DNA of 32,000 nt from Halomicrobium mukohataei DSM 12286. Its GTDB lineage: Archaea > Halobacteriota > Halobacteria > Halobacteriales > Haloarculaceae. Each line of letters begins with the position of its first letter. The first letter of the stretch is position 1. The DNA lies in NCBI RefSeq assembly GCF_000023965.1, contig NC_013202.1:1440001-1472000 (forward strand), written 5' to 3'. The notes under the pieces are model-generated. The model was not told the DNA's origin. It was given only the letters and a program-made list of their open reading frames with translations, and did no database searches. Below, one piece after another: positions 8,622 to 32,000 of the stretch. Both the position numbers and the translations under genes were made by a program.

Positions 8622-8701
8622 TAGTAACAATTGAAACGATTTACACACCGATCGCACTGCAGTCGTGCGATCGGGTGTGCATTGATTTTCAATGGCTACT
8701 A
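8622..8701. repeat. 80-nt two-tier hairpin element B (MITE-like, single copy in window)
   Basis: Outer arms 'TAGTAACAATTGAAA' and 'TTTCAATGGCTACTA'. Inner stem 'CACACCGATCGCAC' (8644-8657) pairs with 'GTGCGATCGGGTGTG' (8665-8679) around the loop 'TGCAGTC'. Flanked by TA/TA. Shares 'ATTG..A.CGATTTAC' and the GATCG core with element A. Confidence 0.55.
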
Positions 8702-11485: not shown

Positions 11486-11600
11486 CGGCGTCGCTGTCGC
11501 GCGCGACGACCGTCGAACGAGTTGCCTGCCGTTCGGAAGCCGAGCGGTCGCTCCCCCGAGGGGGGCGCTCACCGGCACCTCGCTACATCCGTCCGTATCA

Positions 11601-11679
11601 TACGGATTATTGTAGCGATTTACCGGTGATCGTCTACTCCGTGGCGACGATCACCGGCAAGCAACTACAATAAACCGTA
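11601..11679 (+). mobile_element. Hairpin element A, copy 1 (79 nt, MITE-like)
   Basis: 'TACGGATTATTGTAG...CTACAATAAACCGTA' termini (14/15 inverted). 12-bp perfect inner stem 'CCGGTGATCGTC'/'GACGATCACCGG'. Flanked by direct TCA (11598-11600) and TCA (11680-11682). 76/79 identical to copy 2 and 72/79 to copy 3. Confidence 0.75.
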
Positions 11680-11856
11680 TCAGGCCGTCTCGGCCAGCTT
11701 CACCTCTTCGAGCGCGATCTCCTCGTGCCCGTCCTCGGCCGCCAGCTCTTTGGCGGCCTGAATCGCCTCGCCGGGGCGCTTCAGATCGCCGTCGACGTGG
11801 TAGACTGTCGGTTCGCTCTCCGCGTCGACGCTGAGGTGGACTTCGAGCTGTGGCAT
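11680..11856 (-). CDS. Small acidic hypothetical protein (58 aa)
   Basis: Below the ORF-track cutoff. 'MPQLEVHLSVDAESEPTVYHVDGDLKRPGEAIQAAKELAAEDGHEEIALEEVKLAETA'. Acidic, with GC-rich third codon positions and a TATA-like box about 27 nt upstream of the ATG. The stop TGA (11682-11680) is the right target duplication of element A copy 1. Confidence 0.55.
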   Translation of the reverse strand: MPQLEVHLSVDAESEPTVYHVDGDLKRPGEAIQAAKELAAEDGHEEIALEEVKLAETA

Positions 11857-15443: not shown

Positions 15444-16661
15444 ATGGCTTCCTTTCCCGTCGAAGTGCTGCTGGGCATCTATCTGGGGTTGCTCGTCGGG
15501 ATCATCCCGGCGCTGGTCTCGTGGGCGATGGCGTTTACCTTTCGCTACTTCGCTGGCGTGACCGTCCCGGCCTTCGGTGTCGCCGTCCTCGCGATCGCGC
15601 TGGCGGGAGTCAACGGCGGGCTGCTCGCGCTGGCCGACAAGTCGATCACCGCCAGTCCGAACGCCGAGCGGATCGTCGTCGCGATTCTCGTCGTCAGCAT
15701 GGCGTCGATGTACGCCCACAGCAAGGGCGACTCGATGGGGGCGGACTTTCCCAAGCGGCTCACGCTCACGTCGCTCCGGAATCGCACGCTCTCGAAAGAC
15801 GTGGTCGACTTCGTCGGCGGCGCGGGCGAGGTCCGGATCCACGTCGTCGGCGAGGTGGCAGACATGGAGGGGTACCCGCCACTCCCCGAACCGCTCCGCG
15901 CCGAGATCCGTGGCGGCGAGTGGACGTTCCCGGCAGATCTCCGGCTCGACGAACTCGAACAGCGGCTCGCCGAGCGCCTCAAGACGGAGTTCGACCTCGG
16001 CGACGTGTCGGTCACCGTCGACGAACGCGGTCGGGCGACCGTCGTCGCAGCGCCGCCCTTCTCCGGGCTCTCGAAGCGGATCGAGGACGGCCGCCACGCG
16101 GTGTCGGTCGACGCGTTGCTCCCGACCGGGCTCGCACGCGGCGACGAGGTGACGCTGCTGACGACCGACGCACAGGTCCGCGGGACCGTCGTCAGCGCTC
16201 GCTCAGGGAGTTCCGAATCGGTCGCCGTCCCGGAGCAACCGACGGTCGAAGACGGCGAGCAGCTGCCGGCCCCCGTTCAGGCACCGACTACCGACGGCGG
16301 CGAGGGTCGGCTCACGGCCGGCGTCCGCCGGACCGACGCCCAGCCGCTCTTGCGTGCCGACCGGGCGAAAGTCGTCGTCGAATCTCGGGGCACCCGTCGG
16401 GAGTACGAACTCGTCTCGCTCCTGCGGCGTTCGGACATGCGGTTCCGGCGAGTGACACCGCACAGCGGCCAGCCCCTCGACGGCGTGACGATCGGCGAGG
16501 CGGCCCTCCGAGAGCGCTACGACGTGGCCGTCTTCGCCGTGAGGAAACCCGGCGGCTGGCGGATCGCGCCCGAGGACACGACCGAGCTGGTGGCCGGTGA
16601 ACAGCTGTTCGTCGTCGGGACGCGGGCCGACCTCGACGCCTTCGAGGAGGCGGTGGCGTGA
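15444..16661 (+). CDS. Membrane-anchored TrkA-C (RCK_C) domain protein
   Basis: About 4 N-terminal TM segments. Central 'ELEQRLAERLKTEFDLGDVSVTVDERG'. C-terminal RCK_C-like 'GQPLDGVTIGEAALRERYDVAVFAVRKPGGWRIAPEDTTELVAGEQLFVVG'. Confidence 0.85.
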   Translation: MASFPVEVLLGIYLGLLVGIIPALVSWAMAFTFRYFAGVTVPAFGVAVLAIALAGVNGGLLALADKSITASPNAERIVVAILVVSMASMYAHSKGDSMGADFPKRLTLTSLRNRTLSKDVVDFVGGAGEVRIHVVGEVADMEGYPPLPEPLRAEIRGGEWTFPADLRLDELEQRLAERLKTEFDLGDVSVTVDERGRATVVAAPPFSGLSKRIEDGRHAVSVDALLPTGLARGDEVTLLTTDAQVRGTVVSARSGSSESVAVPEQPTVEDGEQLPAPVQAPTTDGGEGRLTAGVRRTDAQPLLRADRAKVVVESRGTRREYELVSLLRRSDMRFRRVTPHSGQPLDGVTIGEAALRERYDVAVFAVRKPGGWRIAPEDTTELVAGEQLFVVGTRADLDAFEEAVA

Positions 16662-18496
16662 CGCTCCAGCTCGTCAGCGGCGTGACGGGGGCCCTCGTCG
16701 ACACGACCGCCCGAATCGCCGGCACGGCGGTGCTCGCCGGCTTCCTCGCGGCGGCGGTCGCGCTGTTCTACCGGTGGTACGTCCGCGAGCGGGTGCCGGT
16801 CGGACTGGCGTTGCTGGTCGGGCTCTCCGGCGTCGCCGCCGTCGCCGGGGCGACCTCGCTGCTGGCCCAGCAGCTCGTGCCGGGCGGTGCCGACCCGGAC
16901 GCCCTCGTGGCGCTGCTCAACGTCGTCACGTTCCTCGTCGGCGGCCTCGGGGCGTACGCAGGCATGCGGGTCGGCGACACACTCGGGATCGACCTGTTCG
17001 CGGCGACGGGGGGCAACGGGATCGACGGCGAGGTCAGCGAACTCGTCAAGGCCGTCGGTCGCGTCATCGCCGTCGAGATCCCCGAGGAGATCGACGACAT
17101 CGTCGGCTACGATCCGGTCGCGGCCGCGACCCGGGAGACCCTCGCCGGTCGGACGTTCCTCTTCCCGCGGCGGCTCACGCAGGCGGAGCTGCGCGAGCGG
17201 TTCGTCTCGCGGCTGAAGACCGACTACGGCGTCGGCCACGTCGACGTGGAGTTCGACGAGGCCGGCAACATCGAGTACCTGGCGCTGGGCTCGCGGGCCG
17301 CCGGGATCGGTCCGACGCTCCCGCCGGCCACCAACGCGGTCGCGATCCGGGCCGACCCGGCAAACGCCGCCAGCGCGGGCGATCTCGTCCAGGTCTGGGA
17401 GACCGATCCCCCGCGGCGCGTGCTCACGGGAGAGCTCCGCGGCGTCGCCGACGAGATCGTCACGGTCGCCATCGACGCTGCCGACACGCCCAAACTCGAC
17501 CCCACGAGCCGGTACAAGCTCGTGACGCTGCCGGTCCAGGACCGGCCGGACCGGGAGTTCGCGTCCCTCCTCCGGGCCGCAGACGAGACCCTCGCCACGG
17601 TCACCGTCGCGGCGGGCTCCCCGATCGACGGGACCCCCGTGGGTTCGCTGTCGGTCACCGTCGCTGCCGTCACACGCGACGACGAGCGGCCCGTCCCGCT
17701 TCCGTCACGAGACCGGGTCCTCAGGGCTGGCGACGTACTCTACGCCATCGCGACGCCGGACGCGCTCCGGAAGCTGGAGGCCGCCACCGCGGCCCCCGAG
17801 GGCGCGGTCGCGGAGCCGGCCGACGGGACGGACGACGAACCGGCGACGGCCGCCGAGGACGCGACAGCCCCGGAACCCGCGGCGAGCGACCGCCCACCAG
17901 CGGACCACCGGCCCGACCAGTCGGAAAGCGAGCGACGAGCGGACGCGTCCGACGGGCAACCGGACGCCGGAGACGAGGTGGTGGGCGACGACGCGGACGA
18001 CACATCGACGACAGAAAGCGAGGCCGATGCGTCGGGCGACGACGGCGCGGACGATGCCGCCCTCTCTGGCGACGCGTTCCCCGACAGCGACGACCTCCCG
18101 GGCATCGATCCCGAGGACGCGACGGCGTCCCCGTCCGACGGCGGAGACGACGACACCGAGGCGATCCCCGACACCGCCGCGTTTCCCGACACCGACGACC
18201 TCCCCGGATCGGAGCTGACAGACGAGGGAGACGCCCGAGCGGATCGGGAGGACGACGGGGACGGAACCGACGGCGCGACGGCGCGGAGCGCGCCGTCGGA
18301 CGAGGACGAAGCCGCGGGCGACTTCGCCGACCTGCTCGACACCGATGTCGGCGCGGGCGACGACCTGGACGACCTCCTCGACGAGGACACCGGCGACACG
18401 GTCGATCTCGACGACGAAACGGCGGACGGATCGGAAGCGGACGACCGCCTCGACGAGGACACCGACGAGACGGACGACCGCGACCGGACCGCCTGA
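16658..18496 (+). CDS. Membrane-anchored TrkA-C (RCK_C) domain protein with long hyperacidic C-terminal tail; paralog of 15444..16661
   Basis: GTG 16658 overlaps the upstream stop (GTGA). 'AELRERFVSRLKTDYGVGHVDVEFDEAG' parallels the paralog. RCK_C-like 'GSPIDGTPVGSLSVTVAAVTRDDERPVPLPSRDRVLRAGDVLYAIA'. From about nt 17780 onward the protein is a roughly 240-aa D/E/A/T-rich tail. Confidence 0.85.
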   Translation: MTLQLVSGVTGALVDTTARIAGTAVLAGFLAAAVALFYRWYVRERVPVGLALLVGLSGVAAVAGATSLLAQQLVPGGADPDALVALLNVVTFLVGGLGAYAGMRVGDTLGIDLFAATGGNGIDGEVSELVKAVGRVIAVEIPEEIDDIVGYDPVAAATRETLAGRTFLFPRRLTQAELRERFVSRLKTDYGVGHVDVEFDEAGNIEYLALGSRAAGIGPTLPPATNAVAIRADPANAASAGDLVQVWETDPPRRVLTGELRGVADEIVTVAIDAADTPKLDPTSRYKLVTLPVQDRPDREFASLLRAADETLATVTVAAGSPIDGTPVGSLSVTVAAVTRDDERPVPLPSRDRVLRAGDVLYAIATPDALRKLEAATAAPEGAVAEPADGTDDEPATAAEDATAPEPAASDRPPADHRPDQSESERRADASDGQPDAGDEVVGDDADDTSTTESEADASGDDGADDAALSGDAFPDSDDLPGIDPEDATASPSDGGDDDTEAIPDTAAFPDTDDLPGSELTDEGDARADREDDGDGTDGATARSAPSDEDEAAGDFADLLDTDVGAGDDLDDLLDEDTGDTVDLDDETADGSEADDRLDEDTDETDDRDRTA

Positions 18497-18618
18497 TACG
18501 GAACGTTGTCGTCGCTTCCCGGTCGGTCCTCACGGGGGAGGACCACCGGTCGATCGCGGCGACCCGCGCGACCGACCCAACCGCTACCGTTATTTTGCGG
18601 CCGCCGTAGGGCACTGAC

Positions 18619-28756: not shown

Positions 28757-29110
28757 GTCCACCGCTACTCGTGTCGAGGGCAAAAGAGTAGCTTCTCGCG
28801 TGTGTCGGGGCGGTCGACACTGTCGTTTGCGGGCCGCCGCGAGCAAGAGTGTGCGGTATCTGACACTCACGTTTCCGGGGTCGCCCTCCTCTGAGCGCGA
28901 AGACGCGCTGGTTCCGGGCCTCGACGTCGACCACGGGACGATCTGTACGTCTTCGTTCACTCCCGGCCGAGTGCGGAGCTGGCAGAGTTGCTCCGAATCG
29001 TCGAGCGCCACCGGCTGATCGTCGAGCTACACGACAACCTCTCGTTTGCTCCCTCGATCACGCTTCGTCCAGACGGTCCCGTCGAGATGACGGTCCGCCG
29101 TCGTGACTGA

Positions 29111-29189
29111 TACGGATTATTGTAGCCATTTGCCGGTGATCGTCTACTCCGTGGCGACGATCACCGGTAAGCAACTACAATAAACCGTA
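29111..29189 (+). mobile_element. Hairpin element A, copy 2 (79 nt, MITE-like)
   Basis: 76/79 identical to copy 1 with no indels. Flanked by direct TGA (29108-29110) and TGA (29190-29192). It lies 39 nt downstream of the stop of the pilin-like gene (minus strand). Confidence 0.75.
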
Positions 29190-29228
29190 TGAGAAAGAGT
29201 GCGGCACCGACCGCCGGGGTGCAAAGCG

Positions 29229-29918: not shown

Positions 29919-30299
29919 TCAGTGACAACGATCGTGGACGATCTCGCCGCCCTCGTCGGGGCCGCGACGCTCGCCGGGGACGATCGGCTCGCCGCAGTCG
30001 GCACAGGTGAGTCCGCCGTCGTCGGACGCGTCCTCGACGACGGTCTCCGTGTCCTCGCCTCGCAGTTCGTCGATGTCGACGGTGACCTCGTCGCCGGTCG
30101 TGTCGATGCCGAGCGCGTCGTTGAGCCCGCAGTACTTCGTCGTGGCGTTGAATCCGAAGGCCAGTGCGCCGATCCCGGCGAGCAGACCGCGCAGTCGCTT
30201 GCCGTTCCGGAGCGACCGAAGCGCTGCGACACTCAGCACGACCGCCAGTAGCGCGCGTGCGATCCGATCACGGCCGCCAACGTTGTCCGTTGAATCCAT
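29919..30299 (-). CDS. DUF2892 (YgaP-like) membrane protein with C-terminal zinc-ribbon
   Basis: 'GGRDRIARALLAVVLSVAALRSLRNGKRLRGLLAGIGALAFGFNATTKYCGLNDALG' matches the DUF2892 two-TM pattern. The C-terminal 'CADCGEPIV...HDRCH' is a CxxC...CH metal site. Confidence 0.8.
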   Translation of the reverse strand: MDSTDNVGGRDRIARALLAVVLSVAALRSLRNGKRLRGLLAGIGALAFGFNATTKYCGLNDALGIDTTGDEVTVDIDELRGEDTETVVEDASDDGGLTCADCGEPIVPGERRGPDEGGEIVHDRCH

Positions 30300-30365
30300 A
30301 CTCGAATAGTTGGGTTCGACGCTCTTGTATCTTCACCTATGGGTCTCGGACGACCGGTAGTGTCG

Positions 30366-30444
30366 TACGGATTATTGTAGCGATGTACCGGTGATCGTCT
30401 ACCCCGTGGCGACGATCGCCGGTACGCAACTACAACAAGCCGTA
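30366..30444 (+). mobile_element. Hairpin element A, copy 3 (79 nt, MITE-like, most diverged)
   Basis: 72/79 identical to copy 1 with no indels. Flanked by TCG (30363-30365) and TCA (30445-30447). It shows a compensatory T-A to G-C change at element positions 20/60 (nt 30385/30425). Confidence 0.75.
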
Positions 30445-30447
30445 TCA

Positions 30448-30525
30448 TACTGCCGGCTGTAAGTCTGTATAGAATTTCGCGACCGCATTGTCGCGAATAT
30501 CTTGAAACAGTTACAGCCGGCAGTA
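30448..30525. mobile_element. Hairpin element C (78 nt, MITE-like), tandem to A copy 3
   Basis: Perfect 15-bp terminal inverted repeat 'TACTGCCGGCTGTAA'/'TTACAGCCGGCAGTA'. Inner 8-bp stem 'TTCGCGAC'/'GTCGCGAA' (30476-30483 / 30490-30497). Flanked by TCA (30445-30447) and TCA (30526-30528), the latter being the symporter stop codon. Confidence 0.7.
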
Positions 30526-32000
30526 TCAGTCGCCGTCGACACCCGAGACGCTGTACAGGCCGGCGTCCTCGCCGGGGGACGCGCTCGTCACGAGCGAGAC
30601 GCCGACGGTCAGGACCAGTCCCAGCGCCATGCAGACGACGCTGGCCGACCAGCCACCGAGGTAGCTGCCGGGCACGAACGGGAGGAAGACGCTGGCGAGG
30701 TAGAACAGCTGCGAGCCGCCGACGCCGGCGTACATCCCCCAGCGGGTCGTCCGGGGCCAGTACAGCGCGACGATGACGGGCAGGGCCAGCTGGGCGAAGC
30801 CGCCGAACGCGGTGTCGCCGATCTGGACGAGCGTTCCCGGCGCGTAGAGGCTGGCGACGAACGAGACCGTCGCGAAGACGACCACGCCAGCGCGGGCGAG
30901 CAGCGTCTCGCGGTCGCGGTCGGAGTGAAGCGTGCGACCGACGGAGACGGCGACTGCGAGCAGGGATCGGCGGACGCGGTTCACCAGCGACGCGCGGTCC
31001 GGCAGCGTCGGCTCCTCCTCGGCGAGGTCGGTCACCGGTCGGTAGAGGTCGCGAGTGAGGTAGGAGGCGCCCGAGAGCAGCATCGAGTCGCTGGAGGACA
31101 TCATGGCGGCCAGCGCCGCGGCGACGACGGCCGCCGTGAACCACCCGGCGGTGTACTCGTTGAGCACCGCCGGGATCACGTTGCCGTTCTCCGGAACGGT
31201 GACGCCCAGGCCGGCGGCCCACGCGCCGAGCATGAACGCGGGGACGAACAGCAGGACCACCAGTACGGGCCACAGCGCCAGCGTCCGCTTGAGCACTTTC
31301 TGGGAGCGAGCGACGAAGAAGCGCTGGTTGATCTGGGGGAACATCGTCACGCCGAAGGCGATGGAAATCGCCGTCGAGAGGACGTACTCCGGCGTGTACA
31401 GCCCGCCGCCCAGTGCGAGGAACTCGGGGTTGGTCTCGGCCAGTCGGTCCGTCGCCGCCGCCGGGCCGCCGACCGCCGAGAGGATCCAGGCGACGGCCGC
31501 CCAGATCAGCCCGAGCATGACGATCCCCTGGAGCGTGTCGGTCCAGGCGACCCCGCGCATCCCCGAGACGGCGACGTAGACGATCATAAAGAGCGTGATG
31601 CCGCCGGCACCGACCCAGAACGGGACCGCGCCGTCGGTCAGTCCGACGACCGCCTGGCCGGCACCCTTCTGCTGGAGCATCACGTAGGGAAAGAGCCAGA
31701 AGAGACTGATCGCCGCCACGAGCCCGCGGAGGAGACGCGAGCCGAAGCGATCGCCCAGCATCTCCCCGAGCGTGACGTAGCCGTGGCGCTGGCCGACGAG
31801 CCACTGCTTGTACCCCAGCACGTACCAGAGGACGGCGAAGATGATCCCGTCCATCAGCCCCATCACCAGCAGCCACTCGGGTCCCTGCGCGAAGGTGAGG
31901 TTCGGGCCGCCAAAGAAGGTAAAGGCCGACAGCAGCGTCGCGAACGTCGTGAACAGGAGTACGACCGTGCCGAATGTCCGGCTGGCGAGGTAGTAGTCTT
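30526..32000 (-). CDS. Sodium:solute symporter family (SSF) transporter, 5' end outside window
   Basis: The reading frame stays open upstream of the listed GTG 31866 to the window edge ('..DYYLASRTFGTVVLLFTTFATLLSAFTFFGGPNLTFAQGPEWLLVMGLMDG..'), which is the canonical SSF N-terminus. At least 12 TM segments. Confidence 0.9.
   Translation of the reverse strand, partial: DYYLASRTFGTVVLLFTTFATLLSAFTFFGGPNLTFAQGPEWLLVMGLMDGIIFAVLWYVLGYKQWLVGQRHGYVTLGEMLGDRFGSRLLRGLVAAISLFWLFPYVMLQQKGAGQAVVGLTDGAVPFWVGAGGITLFMIVYVAVSGMRGVAWTDTLQGIVMLGLIWAAVAWILSAVGGPAAATDRLAETNPEFLALGGGLYTPEYVLSTAISIAFGVTMFPQINQRFFVARSQKVLKRTLALWPVLVVLLFVPAFMLGAWAAGLGVTVPENGNVIPAVLNEYTAGWFTAAVVAAALAAMMSSSDSMLLSGASYLTRDLYRPVTDLAEEEPTLPDRASLVNRVRRSLLAVAVSVGRTLHSDRDRETLLARAGVVVFATVSFVASLYAPGTLVQIGDTAFGGFAQLALPVIVALYWPRTTRWGMYAGVGGSQLFYLASVFLPFVPGSYLGGWSASVVCMALGLVLTVGVSLVTSASPGEDAGLYSVSGVDGD

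Follow-up and report, generated by a model that had tools for sequence, protein, structure and literature searches.

The IS5 subgroups IS1031, ISL2 and IS427 generate 3-bp duplications of the form T-N-A, and the PIF/Harbinger group, with its Tourist MITEs (miniature transposable elements bearing inverted repeats), uses TTA/TAA inside the palindrome CWCTTAGWG. A TA duplication in a CTAG-type target characterizes the Stowaway-like MITEs of the IS630/Tc1-mariner group. Here we describe two hairpin elements of different families, A3 and C, which stand back to back at the stop codon of a sodium:solute symporter gene in a 32,000-nt chromosomal segment of Halomicrobium mukohataei DSM 12286 (NC_013202.1; this whole segment is called the window below). 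They are probably two non-autonomous palindromic transposable elements of the MITE type that have inserted at C-TGA and duplicated the TGA.

In haloarchaea, MITEs have been catalogued in Haloquadratum (PMC3119063), and a MITE census found very high counts in Haloarculaceae but did not analyse the targets (PMC11602168). The SMR-A repeat of Haloquadratum, about 110 bp long, combines prominent terminal inverted repeats with a strong target preference and has no known mobilising enzyme (PMC3119063). A search of the literature found no description of the present elements, and a large element group that inserts on C-TGA and leaves the stop codon in place is apparently undescribed.

The symporter stop codon and its two elements

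The features of the locus are, in forward-strand coordinates of the window:

30363..30365, no strand assigned: gene-distal A3 flank, TCG (in gene orientation, CGA)
30366..30444, no strand assigned: element A3, family A, 79 nt, with TACGG...CCGTA ends; a hairpin with 89% identity to A1
30445..30447, no strand assigned: shared TCA (TGA in gene orientation), both distal flank of C and proximal flank of A3
30448..30525, no strand assigned: element C, family C, 78 nt, with ends TACTGCCGG...CCGGCAGTA; recognized as a hairpin and by repeat matches
30526..30528, minus strand: symporter TGA stop and proximal flank of C, context GAC TGA; from the open reading frame (ORF) and its GC content at codon position 3
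30526..32000, minus strand: 3' part of the sodium:solute symporter gene, 524 aa in full in the source genome

A preliminary description of this DNA had proposed the order TCG-[A3]-TCA-[C]-TCA with the stop codon as the last TCA, and this proved exact to the base when coordinates and ORF were checked. The stop closes an in-frame ORF of at least 300 codons in which GC at codon position 3 is 0.94, and the minus-strand ORF 30526..31866 encodes a Pfam SSF symporter (E 3.6e-37) with the C-terminus ...GVDGD*. The features said to be common to A3 and C are indeed shared, namely size, TAC...GTA termini, hairpin build and a TGTA at positions 11-14. Element C is 84-91% identical to plasmid copies from Halomicrobium and Haloarcula, while identities within family A refer to A1 (11600-11683) as the reference copy. 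The TCG at 30363-30365 is interpreted as one copy of the duplicated TGA that has since diverged; CGA is the most frequent variant of the distal flank among the other copies as well.

Both elements fold into a single long hairpin on either strand, with energies of -43.5/-47.3 kcal/mol for A3 (z -5.8/-6.9) and -46.1/-47.3 kcal/mol for C (z -11.5/-10.2), and 0/200 shuffled controls fold as well as A3 or C. At the terminal inverted repeats 13-15 of the 16 end bases are complementary, and pairing extends over the entire unit.

Target motif and duplication

The material scanned amounts to 1.8 Mb and consists of the window, the annotated 222-kb plasmid NZ_CP039376.1 of H. mukohataei strain JP60 and 80 loci from other Halobacteriales (cited by L numbers), which a scan of a genome collection with the symporter protein had delivered. 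An energy-based scan in the style of RNALfold yielded hundreds of hits at 65% GC and was replaced by complementarity scans. An unbiased scan for palindromes of 60-95 nt, bounded solely by TA(C/G)...(C/G)TA and with no flanks imposed, gave 33 hits. The flanks read TGA/TGA in 10 of them, TCA/TCA in 8 and TCG/TCA in 3, and TA flanks were found in 7 hits of family B; matching TGA/TGA or TCA/TCA flanks are hence present in 18/33 and TAA/TTA in 0. Single C copies on plasmids also carry TGA/TGA flanks.

When the orientation of the element is held constant, two family A copies of the window differ in their flanks, A1 lying between TCA..TCA and A2 between TGA..TGA. The C family shows the same co-variation when C is compared with L013-1212 and L112. 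That both flanks co-vary at a fixed orientation indicates a genuine 3-bp duplication rather than a TGA borne by the element.

This observation also bears on a quite different mechanism, in which the elements would be single-strand hairpins, akin to IS200/IS605-PATE or REPIN/RAYT, and would have been inserted 3' of CTGA by an HUH tyrosine transposase. The distal TGA would then be the element's own 3' cleavage site, with no true duplication. Several features would suit it: TGA flanks are invariable, the target shows asymmetry (see below), each element forms a single hairpin over its full length, the 1.8 Mb yielded no DDE partner that has such ends, TnpB/IS605-type genes are present in the genome (a TnpB gene is seen on the plasmid), and in bacteria the GTAG ends of repetitive extragenic palindromic (REP) sequences often provide the stop codon of the flanking ORF (PMC3733652). 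However, a strand-specific element bringing its own 3' TGA could not have TGA flanks in some copies and TCA flanks in others at one orientation. Moreover, the terminal inverted repeats are perfect to the very ends, unlike the IS605/PATE ends described for Haloquadratum (PMC3119063), and the TA flanks of the sister family B, in a (C/A)TA..TAG context, are typical of DDE elements. We consider such a single-strand origin unlikely.

At 22 unique intact sites, position -1 is a C in 20 and position +1 a G in 11. The central base is A or T in 0/22, an outcome with a chance of about 2e-6 if 45% A/T is assumed for intergenic central bases. The target is C-TGA(-G), of which the TGA is duplicated, and this motif replaces the TNA target originally claimed, the centre of which is never A/T at these sites. 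A palindromic CTSAG target had been entertained too and is weakened by the asymmetry between C(-1) and G(+1).

Dispersed families with a common apex

A3 and C are members of dispersed mobile MITE-like families. The group to which they belong (hairpins of 76-81 nt with TA(C/G)...(C/G)TA ends and a subterminal TGT(A/C)) is spread across Halobacteriales. Family A has two further window copies, at 11601-11679 and 29111-29189, with 89-95% identity to the reference, and additional copies on the plasmid. Family C has one copy in the window and occurs at 29 places in 7 haloarchaeal plasmid records, with matches of 72-91% identity in plasmids of Halomicrobium, Haloarcula and Haloplanus. The JP60 plasmid contains about 18 hairpins of 76-80 nt with TAC...GTA ends, which fall into families A, A', C, C-like, D, E and F, where A' consists of the inner stem of A with different arms. 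The other copies of the A type in the window are:

11598..11682 (element 11601-11679), no strand assigned: element A1, TCA/TCA flanks, from the repeat match
11545..11597, no strand assigned: A'-type remnant, right half (...GCGCTCACCGGCACCTCGCTACATCCGTCCGTA), comparable to the plasmid copy at 145116
29108..29192 (element 29111-29189), no strand assigned: element A2, TGA/TGA flanks, from the repeat match
18497..18575, right boundary approximate, no strand assigned: degenerate A'-like element (TACGGAACGTTGTCGTCGC...), directly after a TGA stop

The stop in question (18494-18496) belongs to a TrkA-C-domain ORF, 16658..18496, and the A'-like copy begins right behind it. A minus-strand gene of 58 aa, called at 11680-11856, has its TGA stop in the right-hand TCA of A1. 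A2 does not lie on a convincing stop codon, as merely an ORF of 40-71 codons ends there.

Contrary to the preliminary description, in which A and C appeared unrelated internally, the two are akin at the family level. An apical motif, CCACGG(G/A)G, is common to the A/A' and C families; it is embedded in GTCGCCACGG(A/G)GTAGAC in A/A' and in GCGACCACGGGGTCGC in the C family, while the arms differ. This kinship escaped notice because the window copy of C has a diverged apex. Compensatory changes preserve the hairpin in 9/21 and 14/29 pairs while the arms diverge.

The orientation of the apex also varies. In an A copy on the plasmid (94583-94661, L006) the apical loop is inverted relative to the arms when compared with A1, A2 and A3 of the window, GCCACGGAGTAG replacing CTACTCCGTGGC, and loop orientation is likewise not the same in A and A'. 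The apex seems to invert across the inner palindrome.

Family B consists of 80-nt hairpins (TAGTAACAATTGAAACG...) of the same build with TA flanks. It is represented in the window at 8622-8701, on the plasmid at 62863, 106386, 140562 and 194615, and in L010 at 9577. Its target context, (C/A)TA...TAG, is an IS630/Stowaway-like signature. By eye the copies are near-identical, which suggests recent activity, and the build, like that of A and C, suggests kinship with these families.

Association with stop codons

On the JP60 plasmid, 10/18 elements have a flank exactly on an annotated stop codon, although stops make up just 12% of intergenic TGA/TCA sites (P = 1.4e-5); one element (139055-139141) is wedged between two convergent stops. 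All of the occupied stops (10/10) have a C before the TGA, as compared to 44% of the TGA stops of the plasmid (P = 3e-4), and roughly 1 in 5 of its C-TGA stops is occupied. An annotation-free test, in which a TGA had to be in frame with a long ORF of high third-position GC, places about 13/19 elements on stops. In H. hispanica and H. urmianum, too, C-like copies occupy annotated stops.

A preference for stop codons had been suggested from the window. The association stands, but the motif explains most of the apparent preference: if the target is CTGA and the intergenic regions actually struck are taken as given, the expectation is 8.4 hits on stops, against 10 observed (P = 0.11), since the stop is usually the sole CTGA in those short intergenic regions. 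Against all intergenic CTGA sites, of which 20% are stops, the excess persists (P = 1.9e-5), which would fit a loss of promoter-region insertions. The simplest account attributes the stop association mostly to the C-TGA motif and purifying selection, with little recognition of stop codons as such.

A mechanism of this kind would run as follows. An enzyme supplied in trans would insert the elements at 5'-C-TGA(-G)-3' and duplicate the TGA; most simply, and by analogy with the IS5 and PIF/Harbinger groups, it would be a DDE transposase that cuts with a 3-nt stagger. In a GC-rich genome stop codons (NNC TGA) would be the main source of C-TGA. Insertion on a stop would rebuild it and insertions into genes or promoters would be lost, so that surviving copies would accumulate on stops. 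We infer the type of enzyme, the order of insertion (see below) and the role of selection, rather than stop recognition, as the cause.

The position at stops might instead reflect function, the hairpins having been recruited as 3'-end modules (terminators, stabilisers or protein-binding sites) and kept by selection. Such a role would be in keeping with the share of plasmid C-TGA stops that is occupied, with an apex conserved where the arms differ and with the compensatory changes that maintain the hairpin. A strong orientation bias at stops, which had been the impression by eye, came down in an alignment-based count to a possible one, 7/8 at stops vs 2/6 elsewhere (P = 0.09). However, the C-TGA motif alone nearly gives the stop association, and copies at stops show no consistent difference in stability between sense RNA (more stable in 12/20) and antisense RNA (8/20). 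No T-run follows the A3+C pair and a terminator scan finds none at that site; Rfam covariance models have no match to the elements at the gathering score and chance-level ones only at E up to 10. Copies also occur in divergent-promoter regions (plasmid 193671 and 145116), and H. katesii, with its 98%-identical orthologue, has no element at the corresponding site. We therefore hold a functional origin to be quite unlikely. A bolder proposal would have 78-80-nt hairpins of Halobacteriales home to C-TGA stops by means of a new enzyme with an asymmetric 4-base target, and serve, through a functional apex CCACGGGG, as portable 3'-end modules; it is speculative and, in our estimate, fairly unlikely.

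The orthologous stop codon in related genomes

Among symporter orthologues, 65/78 end in C-TGA. In H. katesii, the sole close relative compared, the symporter is 98% identical at the protein level and the flanking DNA 97-99%, yet no element is present at the stop: the two sequences differ by one indel of 163 nt, equal to 78+3+79+3. This is not a clean empty site, since the 9 nt after the H. katesii stop (TACTGCCGG, L013 11573-11590) are identical to the terminus of C. The flank that follows A3 in the window (within 30340-30365) reads CACTACCGG and matches these 9 nt at 7/9. The H. katesii state is thus either a deletion between imperfect repeats or an older remnant, and the flank after A3 is possibly what is left of an even earlier element; the stop would then have been hit three times. 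Element A2 is kept at its orthologous position in H. katesii.

The orthologous stop is occupied in four other lineages, L011 (TAGTGG..., 80 nt), L014 (A'-like), L018 and L062. Together with the window, five lineages carry five different families on the stop of the same gene. L015 is empty though the C-terminal residues of its symporter are the same as in the filled L014, and insertion polymorphism is accordingly observed between related genomes for both pairs, window/H. katesii and L014/L015. Several properties by which MITEs are recognized are seen here: the elements are short and non-coding, have terminal inverted repeats, are dispersed in multiple copies, duplicate their target and differ in presence between relatives.

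Logan read-archive assemblies of three sequencing runs contain A3 and half of C, the contigs breaking inside the hairpin. A metagenome search with a 19-mer of the symporter 3' end, aimed at states with 0, 1 or 2 elements, returned 6 unrelated chance hits.

Public short-read assemblies of H. mukohataei break exactly within these hairpins: L002-L004 begin midway through C, and L115 stops within A1. Since the elements fragment assemblies, they will be under-counted in draft genomes.

Stacking and order of insertion

The stacking of pairs that share one TGA recurs. A second stack in the window (11545-11682) has the structure gene-TGA-[A1]-TGA-[A' remnant] with one TCA in common, and the same arrangement is seen at L062 1360. 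In both window stacks it is the intact element that adjoins the gene. On the plasmid at 46521-46720 (L005), the TGA stop of an HTH-domain gene marks the start of a D-type unit, which recurs head-to-tail at least 2.5 times with a period of 81; this array looks like a tandem duplication, not like repeated insertion.

At the symporter stop, A3 most likely came before C, because after a first insertion only the gene-proximal TGA keeps its preceding C. The stop would have been hit twice, first to give gene-TGA-[A3]-TGA and then by insertion of C into the proximal copy, which would leave gene-TGA-[C]-TGA-[A3]-CGA. Stepwise insertion, as put forward in the preliminary description, is supported by single copies with their own flanks elsewhere but not by a one-element intermediate at the locus itself, H. 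katesii being without the whole block.

That the whole block is missing there, and that no intermediate turned up, could also be expected if the block of 163-165 nt were a single composite unit or the product of local duplication or recombination, and tandem arrays such as that of period 81 at plasmid 46521 do exist. However, A and C are each represented by many single copies that have TGA flanks of their own, their arms are unrelated in sequence, the length is exactly 78+3+79+3, and the copies inspected (window, plasmid and fetched loci) include no further A+C pair. An origin of either kind is very improbable.

Search for a mobilising enzyme

It had been proposed that the same or related transposases move A and C. 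A common or related enzyme is plausible, since the two share size, ends, target and flanks, but the transposase itself was not identified. The search for a parent covered spans of about 130-4000 bp with TAC..GTA ends or with any inverted repeat flanked by TGA/TCA, and its matches were chance GC-rich ones only. Transposase genes on the plasmid belong to IS5, ISH3, IS1595 and TnpB, and ends were compared for the IS5-family and ISH3-like genes alone. The IS5-family element, of which one copy was compared, has unrelated ends (TGCYYTGTTGAATCC), and no matching terminal repeats surround the ISH3-like ORF; both were discarded as partners. A scan of viral contigs with the termini of A and C gave chance matches in unrelated viruses only.

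Several points weigh against insertion of two MITEs at C-TGA by an enzyme of the DDE type. The two half-sites differ significantly (Fisher P = 0.007 for C(-1) 20/22 vs G(+1) 11/22), and an asymmetric target is unusual for a dimeric DDE enzyme. Where the gene-distal flank deviates, it is CGA in 8 cases vs TAA in 2 and TGG in 1, and such a recurrent T-to-C change at one flank position is not predicted by neutral decay. (The CGA flanks are those at window 30363-30365, at plasmid 20566, 213041, 145195 and 220163, in L014, in L062 at 16123 and in L113.) An apex kept across families with divergent arms is not expected of a purely selfish MITE. Given the 9-nt match to C, the A3+C block may have been lost in H. 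katesii as one unit, and a one-element state of the symporter stop was not found among the relatives compared. Finally, the search of the 1.8 Mb turned up no autonomous partner that has matching ends or is flanked by TGA.

Neighbouring genes and further observations

The gene downstream of the symporter is:

29919..30299, minus strand: YgaP-like membrane protein gene, 126 aa

The A3+C pair sits between the symporter stop and the region upstream of this same-strand gene. The 126-aa protein is encoded identically on CP045142.1 (GCA_009217585.1). Further downstream, between a pilin gene and element A2, the region's only terminator-like site is found on the minus strand at 29201-29216, a short hairpin rich in GC with a CTCTTTCT run behind it, just past the pilin gene stop (29229).

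A C-like half-copy on the plasmid (118725-118790, L007) comprises the right arm only and is found upstream of a TnpB (IS605-type) gene, at a distance of about 240 nt, which recalls the reported occurrence of Haloquadratum MITEs, often within IS605-type elements. Short hypothetical ORFs run across elements or end in them at plasmid 94428-94628 and 144684-145154 and at window 28988-29110. They look like gene-calling artefacts due to the repeats.

Implications

If the proposed insertion at C-TGA is correct, about 1 in 5 C-TGA stops on a Halomicrobium replicon directly precedes a mobile hairpin, and independent hits on one and the same stop codon have occurred in several genera. This would be a natural case in which a short target motif and selection together make stop codons safe landing sites for transposons. 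The elements would also be a source of structural variation in the 3' untranslated regions of haloarchaea. On the practical side, they break short-read assemblies and mislead gene callers into spurious short ORFs.

Comparison with known systems

The IS5 and Harbinger groups resemble the present elements in their 3-bp T-N-A duplication, in the C...G flanks and in having MITEs that share only the ends of the parent. Here, T-S-A duplications and C...G flanks are present, but the central base is G or C only, and the left half-site is far stronger than the right, where G occupies 11/22 sites. The TAC/TAG ends are also unlike those of the IS5-family copy on the plasmid. With the IS630/Stowaway elements, family B has the TA signature in common, combined with the 80-nt hairpin build; A and C differ from them by their TGA/TCA flanks.

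Like REP sequences and the REPIN/RAYT system (PMC3733652, PMC2817692), the present elements are extragenic, high-copy hairpins that often directly follow genes. In contrast, REPs produce no duplication and are strand-specific, while the flanks described here co-vary at a fixed orientation and the host is an archaeon; no RAYT gene was found in the material scanned, which does not extend to the full genome. SMR-A is similar in being a small haloarchaeal repeat with terminal inverted repeats, a target preference and no known enzyme. It has no target duplication and targets the palindromes of IS605-type elements (PMC3119063), whereas the elements of the window and its relatives use C-TGA and stop codons.

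The closest overall resemblance is to prokaryotic MITEs, which are likewise short, non-coding and multi-copy, carry terminal inverted repeats, duplicate their target, are mostly intergenic and vary in presence between relatives. Neither a C-TGA target nor an association with stop codons is reported in the two haloarchaeal studies (PMC3119063, PMC11602168). In comparison with other MITEs, the present elements stand out in that each is a single, nearly perfect hairpin whose size is fixed (78-80 nt), with a TGA flank in a C-TGA context on stop codons and an apex common to several families.

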